Assembly (NCBI GenBank): GCA_016840085.1
Contig: JAEOTA010000085.1
Location: 32,001 to 96,000 of the forward strand
Source: Promethearchaeota archaeon
GTDB lineage: Archaea; Asgardarchaeota; Lokiarchaeia; Sigyniarchaeales; SOKP01
Length of the DNA stretch: 64,000 bases
Reading direction: 5' to 3'
A program made the translations under genes and the position numbers. Positions 43,003-61,599 of this stretch are shown here, piece after piece (the first letter of the stretch is position 1; every line of letters starts with the position of its first letter). The notes below the pieces were generated by a model, which was given only the letters and a program-made list of their open reading frames with translations, ran no database searches and was not told where the DNA came from.

Positions 43003-43473
43003 TTAACTGTTATCTTCTATACTCTTATAATGTCTGAAGGGACCTAATTCTTTAATTTGGTTAGTAAATTCTGTGATTACTTCAGCAAATCTCTTTCCTT
43101 CAGATGCACTGACCCATTCTAAACGCACCCTTTTTGGATCTACTCCTAATTGTTTAATCAGAATATTATGTAATCTCTCGAATCGTTCCTGTGTATATTC
43201 ATTTCCAGTAATATAATGACAATCTCCAATATGACATCCACTTACTAGAACTCCATCAGCGCCATTTTTTAAAGCTTTTAGGACAAATGATGGATCTACT
43301 CTTCCAGAGCACATTACCCTAATGATTCGAATATTCGGAGGGTATTGAAACCGTGAGACTCCTGCTAAATCTGCTCCTGCATAACTGCACCAGTTACAAC
43401 AAAAAACTAAAATATGAGGTTCGAATTCTTCTTTTTTTACTTTTTTTCTTGATCGTGACATTTTCTTATTCAC
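43003..43473 (-). CDS. mvhD: MvhD/FlpD iron-sulfur subunit (Cys form)
   Basis: [35 protein letters not shown]. Confidence 0.95.
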
Positions 43474-51654: not shown

Positions 51655-52086
51655 TTAAATTGGTCTCAAGGGACCAAGTTCTTTAATTTGGTTTGTAAAT
51701 TCTGTTATAACTTCAGCAAATCTCTTCCCTTCAGAGGCACTTACCCATTCAAGTCTAAACCTTTTTTCAAGATTGAATATTCTTAGAATTTCTCGAAAAT
51801 TTACAAATCTATCTCTTGCAAACTCATTTCCTTTCAAGTAATGACAGTCACCAATATGACATCCAGTTACAATGACTCCATCAATGCCATCTTTAAATGC
51901 CTCTAAAATAAAAGCTGGGTCTACTCTACCAGAACACATTACACGTACTATTCTAATAGTGGAGGGATATTGAAATCGTGAAACTCCAGCTAAATCTGCT
52001 CCGGCATAACTACACCAGTTACAACAGAAACACAAAATATTTGGATGAAATTCCTTATTTTTTACTTTCTTTTCTTTACTTATCAA
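51655..52086 (-). CDS. mvhD: MvhD/FlpD iron-sulfur subunit (Cys form)
   Basis: [21 protein letters not shown]. Confidence 0.95.
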   Translation of the reverse strand: MISKEKKVKNKEFHPNILCFCCNWCSYAGADLAGVSRFQYPSTIRIVRVMCSGRVDPAFILEAFKDGIDGVIVTGCHIGDCHYLKGNEFARDRFVNFREILRIFNLEKRFRLEWVSASEGKRFAEVITEFTNQIKELGPLRPI

Positions 52087-57566: not shown

Positions 57567-59063
57567 TTATTCCTTTTCCAATTTGATTGGTTTACAATTT
57601 TTTCTTTTAATACCAGCAATCCTTTCTAATAAGGGTTGCCCAGGTTTAACCGCCTTTAAGCTTTTGGATTCTATAAATCCTGTTTTAATAGCTCCTTTAA
57701 AAATTTCTTCCCCTTTCTTATTTCGAGTGATAACAGAAGACCATCCACTCCCAGAACCAATTGAACCAATTGAGATGTCAGCATAATCTGCTGTTAAATC
57801 TTCACAATAATGGCAGTTATTGCGAGCATAAGATTTAACATCTTTAAGCGGAACTTTTAAATCTTCTCCGGTATCCAAATATATGATAAATTCACCACCA
57901 CTAATGTCCATCTTTGTTACTTTATTAAAATCTTGGTTAAATTGCTCTTTAATTAATCCAAGGACTCCTTCATAAGGAAAAGATTCCATGCAAAAAAGTC
58001 CTATTTTATATTTTATATTCTTGAAAAAAGGTACTCCACTTGGAAAAAGATTACCCTTTTCAATAGCATTCATCATACATGGAGTACCTACAACAGCTAT
58101 ATTGTCATATTTCTTGGCTTTATCGATAATAGCTAAAGTAGATGCGTTTGCATATTTAGTTCCCCCCGTCTTATATAGATCTTTCAAATTATCCACGATG
58201 ACGGGTTCAGGCTTCCATTTCTCTTCTGAGTGCTGTACTGCTACAATCGCATCGACTAATTTATTCTTAAGTAAGTATTCAAGTAAAGAAGTAACAATCC
58301 CCCCATCTTGTCGTACTTTTTTAATATCATCCTTAGTGGTGCTGGCAGAATAGGTATTGATATAACCATTAATTTTTTCTGAAAATTTTAAAGAATTATC
58401 TCGCTTATTTATACTCTTACCCGCTTGTTCAATTGAAAATGATCTCGGGCAAACAGAATAACATAAACCGCATTTCATACAAGTTTCATCATCGATCTCT
58501 AAAGTATCTGCTGTTACTGTAAGAGCATTTACTGGGCAAATTGATGAGCACCAACCACATTGACAGCATACTTCAGAATCAAACACGATTGAAACAGGTT
58601 CAAAAAAATGTTCAATAAAATCATCAGGTATATCTTTAACTTGATATCTATAGAAAAATTCTTTTTCCTCAATTTCTTTTTCTTCTCCTTTTACTTTCTT
58701 AATAACCTTTTTAATTTTAATCTCTATTTCTTCTTCAATATAACCTTGTTCTTTTAGATAAATTATATCTCGTATTACATTTTCTGGTGGAAAATTGTCT
58801 ATAATTTTCACAATTTCTTCCAGAAATAATAGTTCTTTACCTTTTAGTTCTTCTAATACTAACTTGCGTTCTGTTTCGGCATCAACCATAGCATCTAAAA
58901 TCTGATAAAATTCTTCCTCTGAATATTTTCCTGCTCCTAAGATTTCTTCTTTTGCTTCAAAAAAAGCACGAACCTGAAAATTTTCTGCCGCTTTATGTGT
59001 TGCTTCCATTAATAATTTAGGGGATATCCCATTAAAGGTTATATCTTTTTCTATTTGAACCAT
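57567..59063 (-). CDS. FrhB/FdhB-family F420-binding protein with N-terminal extension
   Basis: CCQCGWC, QDGGIVT, GTKY, VGTPC, GLFCME, CHYCEDLTADYADISIG. Confidence 0.9.
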   Translation of the reverse strand: MVQIEKDITFNGISPKLLMEATHKAAENFQVRAFFEAKEEILGAGKYSEEEFYQILDAMVDAETERKLVLEELKGKELLFLEEIVKIIDNFPPENVIRDIIYLKEQGYIEEEIEIKIKKVIKKVKGEEKEIEEKEFFYRYQVKDIPDDFIEHFFEPVSIVFDSEVCCQCGWCSSICPVNALTVTADTLEIDDETCMKCGLCYSVCPRSFSIEQAGKSINKRDNSLKFSEKINGYINTYSASTTKDDIKKVRQDGGIVTSLLEYLLKNKLVDAIVAVQHSEEKWKPEPVIVDNLKDLYKTGGTKYANASTLAIIDKAKKYDNIAVVGTPCMMNAIEKGNLFPSGVPFFKNIKYKIGLFCMESFPYEGVLGLIKEQFNQDFNKVTKMDISGGEFIIYLDTGEDLKVPLKDVKSYARNNCHYCEDLTADYADISIGSIGSGSGWSSVITRNKKGEEIFKGAIKTGFIESKSLKAVKPGQPLLERIAGIKRKNCKPIKLEKE

Positions 59064-59115
59064 AATTCTTATTTAATTTATTTTTTATTCAAAAAAATTA
59101 ATTTAATATTTTAAA

Positions 59116-59183
59116 ACCCCTTCCCTTGCGAGGAGAATCTTCTTATAACTAATATTTTTTTATAAGAATCATTCCAAAGGGGT
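59116..59183 (-). promoter_or_regulatory. Eukaryote-like SECIS element
   Basis: mRNA reads ACCCCUU..GGA-AUGA-UUCUUAUAA-[AAAAAUAUUAG]-UUAUAAGAA-GA-UUC...AAGGGGU: an AUGA/GA core, a perfect 9-bp stem, an A-rich loop and a 7-bp outer helix. Confidence 0.8.
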
Positions 59184-59630
59184 AGTTAAGAGTTCCTTCA
59201 TTTCAACTTCTGCTTCTTCTTCACCGATGTTAAGAGGACTTGGCCCTATTCTGCGAATTTTTTCAAAGGAATCTTCAACGCTTTTTACTAATTTTTCTGA
59301 TTCTGCACTTGAGCACCAGTACATATTAATCCGCTCACTTCCAAATCCTCGTCTATCAAGAATTCTTTTAGCAAAGTCTATGTGTTTTGAGGCTGTAAAA
59401 TTACCTTCTTTAAATTGACATTCATTTTCACGTCATCCAACAACCATGACGCCGTCAGCTCCGCTTTTTATAGCATATAATATATGCTTTACGTCAACTC
59501 GTCCTGTACACCTTACTTTAATGATCTTTACTGAGGGTGTATATTTTAAACGGGAAACTCCAGCTAAATCCGCTGCTCCATAGCCTCATTTTAAACAAGC
59601 AAACATTATTATCTTATAACTATTTTCCAC
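59169..59630 (-). CDS. mvhD: Selenoprotein MvhD/VhuD, 153 aa, two Sec
   Basis: GTG start after GGAGG. In-frame TGA at 59586-59588 (CLKU) and 59433-59435 (VVGU) align to Cys in both Cys paralogues. Not in the ORF track. Confidence 0.92.
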
Positions 59631-59652: not shown

Positions 59653-61599
59653 TTAAGTCTCTAATAATGCAGAGATCTCCGAATATAGTTGATCATCTCG
59701 GAAATATTTAATATCTATAGCTTCTGTAGGACAACAACTAGCACATATACCACAGCCATCGCAGTTTAGATCATCAACAATAGCACTTTCTGCCTCCTCA
59801 TCAATAATAATCGCGTTCTTTGGACATTCCTTTTCACATCTTCTGCAGGATATACAAAAATCCTTGTTGACTTCTGCAATTATAAGTTCAAGATCAATCT
59901 CTCCAGCAGATGTTAATTCAGCTACTTTACTGGCAGCTGCTCTGGCTTGTGAAACAGAATATGCTATATTTTTTGGACCTTGAGCAAATCCAGCAATAAA
60001 AATACCTCTGGTCTTAGTTTCTTGGGGCATCAATCCAAAATGAGATTCTGTAAGAAAGCCATTTCGATCTATGTCCAAATTCAAAATTTTCGCAATTTGT
60101 TGTGTTCCTTCTGAGGGTAAAGCAGCACTTGATAAAACAACTAAATCAGCATCAATTATTACAATCTTATCTGTTAATGTTGAATAAACCCGAACTTTCG
60201 CTTTTTTGGTCTCAGGATCTTCAGTGATCTCGCCAACTTTTCCTCGAATCATTCTAATCCCCGCATCTTTCGCCTTCTCATAATACTCTTCGAAACCTTT
60301 TTCGTTTGTTCTGATATCTATATAACAAATTGTGATACTTGCATCAGGAAATTCTTCTAAAAGTAATTGTCCATTCTTAAGAGCTAACATGCAACAAACA
60401 CCGCTACAATATGGTCTGTCAGTTTCTCTAGATCCGACGCACTGAATAAACACAATTTCTTTTGGTTTTTTATCATCCGAAATTCGATGTACATGTCCTT
60501 CTAATGGTCCATTAGGAGCTAAAATTCTCTCAAGTTGAGCTTGAGTAATTACATTTTCAAATTCACCATAACCATATTCCCCAAAAGGTTCATAGATATC
60601 CCATCCAGTGGCGATAATTATTGTACCGACATCAAAATTAACTTCTTTTGGAACTTGGCTAAAGTCTATGGCATCTAATTCACATGCATCAACACAAGAA
60701 AAACATTCAACACACACATCTCTATTGATATCATAAATAAAGGGTACTGCTTGTCCAAATGCTATATCAATCGCTTTTCGAGCACCCAAATATGCATCAA
60801 AATAGTTGGTTATATAAGTTGGACAGACTTCTGTACAAGCTCCACAACCATTACATAATTTAGGATCAACGAATCGCGGTTTCATCTCAACAGTAACATT
60901 ATACTTTCCTACATTTCCTGTAATTTCCTTTACTTCAGTATAACTTAAAATCTCAATATTTTCATTCCGATTAACCTCCAACATCTTTGGACCACAAATT
61001 CATATAGCACAATCATTTGTAGGGAATGTTCTATCTAGTTGAGCCATTCTCCCTCCTATAGTAGTATTTTTTTCTACTAAATATACTTTAATTCCTTGAT
61101 TGGCGAGATCGAGAGCAGCATTCATACCTGCAATTCCACCTCCTACTACTAATGTAGCTTTTGTAACTGGTACTGTTTTTATAGGTATAACTTCTAATCG
61201 CTTTGCCCTCTCAATACCAGCTTTCACTAAAATTTTCGCCTTTTCTAGAGCCTCTTCTTTACTTTCAGTACACCAACTACAATGTTCCCTCACATTTACC
61301 ATTTGAAAATAGTAAGGGCTTAAACCTGCTTTTGCTAGTGAATCTCGATAAATTGGTTCGTGAGTTCTTGGAGTTCAAGCACTTGCAACAATTCGATTTA
61401 AATTCTTTTCTTTAATATCTTCTATTATTTCATTCTGTGCGGCATCAGTACATAGAAAAGCATTTTTCTTTGAAATTATTATACTTTCGTCAAGATCTTT
61501 TACATACTCTACTAATTTATTGCAATCGACTTTGCTATTAATATTTATGCCTCAGTGACATGCATAGAATCCAATCCTATGATTTTGGTTATTATTCAT
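59653..61599 (-). CDS. hdrA: Selenoprotein HdrA, 648 aa, three Sec
   Basis: ATG at 61599 after GAGGTG. In-frame TGA at 61552-61554 (CHU), 61375-61377 (ASAUTPRTHE) and 61000-61002 (DCAIU). Joins two track ORFs. Confidence 0.92.

Follow-up and report, generated by a model that had tools for sequence, protein, structure and literature searches.

In the window, by which we mean the whole stretch of 64,000 nucleotides that was analysed, the minus strand carries an hdrA-vhuD gene pair (Table 1). vhuD (mvhD) lies 22 nt downstream of hdrA and its product matches the Pfam family FlpD (PF02662) with an E value of 1e-42, while Pfam FAD and Fer4 domains are found on the two pieces of hdrA that result from translation table 11. 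The pair contains five in-frame UGA codons at Cys positions, three in hdrA and two in vhuD. When the protein is aligned with three paralogues of this genome, the two vhuD codons fall in invariant Cys columns (CxKC-GY and GC..GEC), and the same two UGA are present in each of 18 vhuD orthologues. The hdrA stop codon is consistent with the published rule that HdrA is never terminated by UGA (PMC4989117). Gene callers using table 11 cut both genes at UGA codons and reach the correct vhuD end by accident; for the annotation of Asgard genomes the locus is a clean and well-conserved example. Two Cys-type mvhD paralogues are located at 43039-43413 and 51670-52041 on the minus strand, with the motifs CNWCSY and GCHIGDCHY, and within one 64-kb window the Hdr/Mvh module has presumptive Sec isoforms next to Cys isoforms.

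Table 1. Features of the hdrA-vhuD locus and of the predicted lokiSECIS at its end (positions in the window)
Feature	Position	Strand	Remarks
hdrA	59653..61599	minus	three in-frame UGA at Cys positions; stop UAA 59655-59653
hdrA in-frame UGA	61554-61552, 61377-61375, 61002-61000	minus	translated as CHUG, SAUTPR, DCAIU
vhuD/mvhD CDS including UGA stop	59169..59630	minus	GTG start at 59630; coding to 59172
vhuD in-frame UGA (presumptive Sec codons)	59588-59586, 59435-59433	minus	Cys positions
Predicted lokiSECIS, whole element	59116..59183	minus	R2 model 89 bits, E 8e-20 (own sequence in seed)
Helix I, 5' strand ACCCCU	59178..59183	minus	within the last codons (Thr-Pro); pairs with 59116-59121
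Putative kink-turn, 5' strand	59169..59175	minus	C-stem GG 59175-59174, bulge A-A-U 59173-59171, G59170, A59169
Helix II, 5' strand UUCUUAUAA	59160..59168	minus	9 bp with 59140-59148; holds in-frame UAA 59162-59160
Apical loop AAAAAUAUUAG	59149..59159	minus	11 nt; direct reading
Helix II, 3' strand	59140..59148	minus	pairs with 59160-59168
3' GA	59138..59139	minus	G59139, A59138, immediately after helix II
C-stem, 3' strand UU	59136..59137	minus	3' of GA
Hairpin III, CCU-CGCAA-GGG	59123..59133	minus	between core and helix I 3' strand
Helix I, 3' strand AGGGGU	59116..59121	minus	continues into U-tract 59116-59113

The 3' end of vhuD reads ...ACU ACC CCU UUG GAA UGA UUC UUA UAA. Its terminal UGA (59171-59169) together with the preceding A59172 makes the AUGA of a hairpin, and a UAA follows two codons past the stop (59162-59160). 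An earlier note on this DNA had described the stop as the UGA of a SECIS core, with the 5' strand of the outer helix in coding sequence and a UAA two codons on, and this description is correct base for base.

By prediction from its sequence, this hairpin is a genuine lokiSECIS, the eukaryote-like Sec-insertion signal of Asgard archaea. Direct reading finds all six features of the published lokiSECIS (PMC4989117). AUGA (A59172 to A59169) stands directly 5' of a main stem of 9 bp that carries a loop of 11 nt; the loop begins with AAAAA and ends with AG; GA is found directly 3' of the stem; and a single element at the end of a UGA-containing gene is common to the hdrA-vhuD tandem. The definition calls for A-rich first five loop nucleotides and for a G, usually after A, as the last, and some published copies have AA instead of GA 3' of the stem (PMC4989117). 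The element is also the sole match in the window below an E value of 0.2 for our covariance model R2. Rfam returned no SECIS family at gathering thresholds across the whole window and none at E values up to 10 on 58900-59400, where the matches were at chance level only. This is in line with the published observation that Loki genes are missed by SECIS tools designed for eukaryotes and archaea (PMC4989117). The element does not conform to a euryarchaeal SECIS, which has a GAA_A bulge and a G/C-rich upper stem: the upper stem here is A/U-rich with a single C-G pair.

Two alignments were used to evaluate the fold. In the 18 orthologous elements, all from one genus, 95.7% of cells are paired, six pairs are altered on both sides and none of 500 shuffled controls was as good. 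In the 54 distinct elements from seven genomes, which are close kin and were aligned by fitting to the model in a way that favours its structure, 92.7% of cells are paired versus 65% in shuffled controls and both-side changes occur in 20 of 20 pairs; slid registers reduce the pairing to 36-54%. All six pairs of helix I covary in this set, with 94.8% of cells paired, and the orthologue from genome G012 has the compensatory version ACUCCC/GGGAGU. All nine pairs of helix II covary, the first position being often unpaired (25 of the 54 elements), and the AUGA core is invariant across the 18 orthologues. Hairpin III has a nearly invariant CC/GG clamp with a covarying third pair, 93.8% of cells being paired among the aligned elements, and it is made from other sequences in three paralogues. 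Covariation supports all four predicted helices, namely helix I, the C-stem, helix II and hairpin III.

The proposal of a Loki-type eukaryote-like SECIS in the earlier note is borne out by the six published features together with this covariation, and the small side hairpin that it drew with a GCAA loop is real and conserved, the loop being CGCAA (59133-59123). It had named a covariance model as a check and a lack of covariation as grounds for giving up the idea; the hairpin covaries across the 54 distinct elements. The other check that it had suggested, RNAfold, gave a more limited answer. On 101 nt the minimum free energy is -20.7 kcal/mol with a z score of -1.28; the score is weak by itself and the support comes from the comparative evidence. 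An extra GGAAU/AUUCU pairing in the minimum free energy structure is found in this genome only and not in the orthologues, and was discarded.

The alignments also concern the lower part of the element. The nucleotide 5' of A-A-U and the nucleotide 3' of the 3' GA, which correspond to the -1b/-1n closing pair of a kink-turn, form a pair in 53 of 53 elements (G-C 41, A-U 10, U-A 1 and G.U 1), and the lone G.U is this vhuD copy. The second pair of the C-stem is formed in 43 of 53. At the sequence level tandem G.A/A.G, a 3-nt bulge and a Watson-Crick -1b/-1n pair are all found, and the core with its 2-bp C-stem appears to have the pattern of a canonical 3-nt-bulge kink-turn on a three-way junction. 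Hairpin III is located between the 3' GA and the 3' strand of helix I, and with it the predicted lower part of lokiSECIS becomes a three-way junction. Read as a kink-turn, the element takes its L3, G1b and A2b from the vhuD stop codon.

The genome (4.68 Mb, 29.5% GC) contains eight or nine lokiSECIS copies according to a simple scan combined with the covariance models R1 and R2. These copies sit behind four vhuD paralogues, vhuU, a Prx-like gene and small UGA-containing ORFs; the two models give 7-8 further genome copies besides the present element, nearly all adjoining UGA-containing ORFs. One more candidate (C85:105695-105773 of this genome, G000; 29 bits) was excluded because its stem is poor and an ORF passes through it. 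The genome encodes SepSecS. A search of the genome with RF01852 did not turn up tRNA-Sec, and the two sub-threshold matches to this model are a tRNA-Gly(UCC) and a tRNA with the anticodon GCU rather than tRNA-Sec; aragorn reports only seven tRNAs in the whole genome and hence was not relied on. Searching the genome contigs with the VhuD alignment, the patterns being back-translated with Cys codons, gave Cys-type homologues only. The sequencing runs listed as matches are metagenomes of sediment, mangrove, marsh and soil, with no RNA run among them.

This association with UGA-containing genes bears on what the hairpin is for. We consider it extremely unlikely that the hairpin acts chiefly at the 3' end of the transcript, terminating transcription or stabilising the mRNA, and is not a Sec signal. 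A run of 3-5 U after helix I in 15 of 18 orthologues is what a 3'-end element would have, but nearly all strong genome matches adjoin UGA-containing ORFs, and the R2 model scan finds no lokiSECIS at either Cys-type mvhD paralogue in the window, a useful internal control. Moreover, the AUGA/GA core, which is invariant, and the A-rich loop belong to a SECIS, and a scan for terminator and promoter consensus sequences gave no call at the element. The hairpin may have a second role as a 3'-end element. The U-tract at 59113-59116 on the minus strand lies about 50 nt ahead of the next gene, which is frhB-like with an ATG at 59063, and may be an archaeal oligo-U termination site.

Several further elements were observed in the course of the scans. 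Elsewhere in this genome (C19:~107120-107600, plus strand, corresponding to L003:3616-4159), two UGA codons stand side by side in the frame of a 157-codon ORF (..DSGC-U-U-EKV..), behind which lies a lokiSECIS-like element; the stop is 10 nt upstream of the core. The protein matches no Pfam family, and its putative Cys-Sec-Sec motif would make it a candidate for a selenoprotein not described so far. In genome G007 (C17:12665-15476, minus strand; L166, L169, L170 and L172) four lokiSECIS are crowded into 2.3 kb, preceded by small ORFs in tandem; two or more of these ORFs are hydrophobic and contain UGA, and in L172 (also L170:347-427) the core is AGGA instead of AUGA. Short hydrophobic ORF families, probably membrane proteins, are present at L158, L165, L177, L182 and others (L153, L155, L169, L178, L187). 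They have an in-frame UGA (G-G-U-G, G-C-G-U-G, L-P-U-T-P and similar) and each is then followed by a strong lokiSECIS; these ORFs may be selenoproteins beyond the five widespread families.

At L149, L157, L173, L180 and L188 (genomes G006, G023, G005, G001 and G004) an hdrA-like C-terminus (..CPARAIDLKYYRD..) ends with UAA at -14 and has its own lokiSECIS directly after the ORF, with no intervening vhuD. In the published picture hdrA always uses the element of vhuD (PMC4989117). In three GC-richer genomes from another family of the same order (L108 in G027, L109 in G029 and L107 in G031) vhuD has one UGA, and inspection by eye shows a different type of element behind it, in which the core reads GUGA...UGA and the side hairpin is longer and GC-rich; in G027 the reading frame seems, again by eye, to meet its first terminal UGA in the GUGA core.

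To find out how well the overlap between stop codon and core is conserved, the protein was used to search genomes of the same genus. An orthologue of vhuD was found in 18 genomes besides this one with 65-78% identity; one is cut by a contig end, and the other 17 plus the copy described here make 18 complete genes. The core UGA is the stop codon in 17 of these 18 despite a tail of variable length and sequence, the 17 endings conforming to ..(T/I)(T/A/N)P.E-UGA-(F/I/L)L-UAA. Conservation of the overlap in orthologues, which the earlier note had proposed to look at, therefore holds with the exception of G012, where the same conserved RNA is present in another frame, the gene stops at a UAA 16 nt upstream (-16) and the element is intact. 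The last five vhuD codons are conserved only as far as the RNA helix demands.

The constant ending invites the idea that the core UGA is itself read as Sec, at least partly, so that VhuD would end ...Glu-Sec-Phe-Leu at the UAA. Although the in-frame UAA at +10 and the (F/I/L)-L tail are present in 17 of 17 overlap-type orthologues, we find this very improbable: no orthologue or paralogue has Cys at the core position, G012 terminates earlier in another frame with the same UAA nucleotides kept, the tails of the paralogues finish before the core, and all presumptive Sec codons are at least 80 nt from the core. In two other genes that stop at the core UGA, vhuU of this genome and L187, no in-frame stop is encountered for at least 20 codons past it. 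We prefer to read the core UGA as a stop. The UAA downstream had been taken in the earlier note for a back-up stop; as a selected feature this is unsupported, since its nucleotides lie within the nearly invariant strand of helix II and are conserved out of frame in G012, so that constraint on the RNA explains them.

We determined the position of stop codons relative to the core, taking the first base of the stop codon and counting the A of AUGA as 0. In this genome the other vhuD genes stop at -3 (UGA; C44), -4 (UAG; C9) and -21 (UAA; C24), the prxL gene (C4) at -5 (UAA), the ORF with the UGA pair (C19) at -10 (UAA) and vhuU (C41) at +1 with a UGA within a UUGA core. The stop of vhuU is the core UGA in all four genomes looked at. 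A census of the 41 elements whose ORF is clear gave 7 with a stop at +1 (core UGA), 16 at -3 to -5, 15 at -8 to -21, 2 at -32 and 1 at +14, past the core, these counts not being independent because the elements represent a few orthogroups in seven genomes of a single genus. The stop thus lies between -32 and +1 for 40 of the 41 elements. The offset is constant within each orthogroup, as exemplified by the UAG at -4 in all C9-type vhuD, and in almost all genes the 5' strand of helix I belongs to the coding sequence. The nearest presumptive Sec UGA is 80-83 nt upstream of the core and there are none between -80 and -33, a gap that is partly by construction as any UGA from -33 onward was counted as stop; terminal UGAs are no more than 8 nt from the core.

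The overlap is optional: G012 and the paralogues stop upstream with the element present. The element abuts the stop as a general rule, hence the overlap is the extreme of that rule and not a special device of vhuD.

An overlap that persists in 17 of 18 genes through indels in a variable C-terminal tail, that recurs in vhuU in all four genomes and that belongs to a family whose stops are never far from the core could nonetheless be a selected regulatory device, the possible feedback of the earlier note, in which a ribosome terminating on the core would unfold the SECIS and so adjust how the ribosomes behind it decode Sec. We judge this unlikely. It is contradicted by G012, which has retained the element without the overlap, by the three paralogues of the same genome with stops at -3, -4 and -21, and by the last five codons, whose conservation goes only as far as the helix requires. 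A ribosome halted a few nucleotides upstream, given the size of ribosome footprints, would melt the core as well. If real, any feedback would then attach to every lokiSECIS, those with stops at -4 or -21 included, and not to the overlap as such. The suggestion of the earlier note that a location within the SECIS protects the stop lacks specificity, as paralogue stops at -3 to -21 are equally within reach of the terminating ribosome.

The account that we favour, and hold to be very probable, is that of a single lokiSECIS serving a bicistronic hdrA-vhuD selenoprotein operon, with its core UGA read as a stop owing to a minimal distance. The anatomy, the covariation, the link with UGA-containing genes and an overlap that is conserved yet optional are observed; the kink-turn folding, the Sec insertion and the reason for termination we infer. 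Once folded, most likely into a kink-turn, the lokiSECIS would specify Sec at the five UGA codons located 263 to 2382 nt upstream. Elements of this family are packed flush against the CDS end throughout the genus, and in this vhuD orthogroup the reading frame happens to enter the core, so that the first stop met in frame is the UGA of AUGA. When the core UGA reaches the A site, the ribosome would already have melted helix I and the core; it would be a stop because a melted core leaves no SECIS to recruit the Sec machinery. A minimal-distance rule was put forward for lokiSECIS, which is effective over a distance yet requires a minimum of spacing, so that an adjacent or internal UGA is a stop and hdrA, far upstream of the element, must avoid UGA as its stop codon (PMC4989117, Discussion). 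The minimal-distance model agrees with the census, in which presumptive Sec codons are at least 80 nt and terminal UGAs no more than 8 nt from the core. As the earlier note had it, one triplet would most likely mean Sec twice and stop once in vhuD, and in addition it would mean Sec three times in hdrA.

A bolder reading takes the element as a k-junction, that is a 3-nt-bulge kink-turn with a 2-bp C-stem braced by the three-way junction and the CC/GG mini-hairpin. Its obligatory location within about 32 nt of the stop would then be mechanistic and not a matter of genome compaction: each terminating ribosome would need to melt and reset the element, and the element or a factor bound to it would be coupled to termination or ribosome traffic, with the core as stop codon representing the limiting case. 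We regard this as speculative and rather doubtful.

The signal and the overlap, as well as the view that a UGA at such close range escapes recoding, are known from papers of 2016 and 2024 (PMC4989117, PMC11227280). The present locus is an ordinary case of this known arrangement, without a new recoding principle. Judged by the portions of these papers considered here, hairpin III, the covarying closing pair of the 3-nt-bulge kink-turn and the offset statistics are undescribed, a modest and computational addition. Hairpin III, the closing pair and the rule of a stop within about 32 nt and Sec codons at 80 nt or more could guide experiments, and these side results bear on which protein reads lokiSECIS in an organism without SBP2, SBP2 not having been detected in Loki (PMC4989117).

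lokiSECIS are known from the HdrA-VhuD, VhuU and PrxL genes of Lokiarchaeota (Mariotti et al. 2016, PMC4989117). The present element has in common with them the AUGA, the 9-bp stem, the 11-nt loop AAAAA..AG and the GA as well as the sharing of one element by hdrA and vhuD, the UAA of hdrA, the overlap with the CDS end and the core UGA as a stop. In the portion of that paper considered here the AUGA of VhuU.1 is stated to be the VhuU.1 stop codon; the core-as-stop case is thus named for VhuU.1 there and here concerns a vhuD orthogroup. Hairpin III, the 2-bp C-stem and helix I are absent from the main-text description of lokiSECIS as far as that portion goes (PMC4989117). Huang et al. 2024 state, in the portion considered, that the UGA stops of Lokiarchaeia selenoproteins often overlap the AUGA motif (PMC11227280). 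Their eSECIS-like type I structures of Asgard archaea share the core pattern and the gene families with our elements, and the type I model, as described in that portion, combines an internal loop with a lower stem and shows no conserved hairpin between core and lower stem (PMC11227280). The corresponding portions of text in PMC4989117 and PMC11227280 make no mention of hairpin III, and a 2026 review has nothing further on the stop/core overlap.

Contact between a SECIS and translated sequence has been seen in other systems. In Methanococcus the CDS is immediately followed by the SECIS (Peiter and Rother 2022, PMC9622424); in eukaryotic transcripts SECIS elements occur within coding regions, according to the part of PMC1802603 considered here. 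To the extent of that part, both cases show that a 3' SECIS tolerates contact with, or a place in, translated sequence; they differ from ours in that other element types and organisms are involved and the core is not the stop codon (PMC9622424, PMC1802603).

Like eukaryotic SECIS (Rfam SECIS_1 and relatives), the element has AUGA...GA tandem sheared pairs and an A-rich apical loop, and it is predicted to act at a distance on several UGA codons under a minimal spacing rule. Unlike them, it has a shorter upper stem of 9 bp, a strict 3-nt bulge and a three-way junction below, and it abuts or overlaps the CDS without 3'-UTR spacing and has no Rfam match. Canonical L7Ae-bound kink-turns, such as those of box C/D sRNA and Kt-7, and 'k-junctions' combine a Watson-Crick -1b/-1n pair, a 3-nt bulge and G.A/A.G with an often non-Watson-Crick 3b.3n. 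The element resembles them in its putative -1b/-1n pair, 3-nt bulge, G.A/A.G and often unpaired 3b.3n, and it is set apart from them by a C-helix of only 2 bp that opens into a junction.
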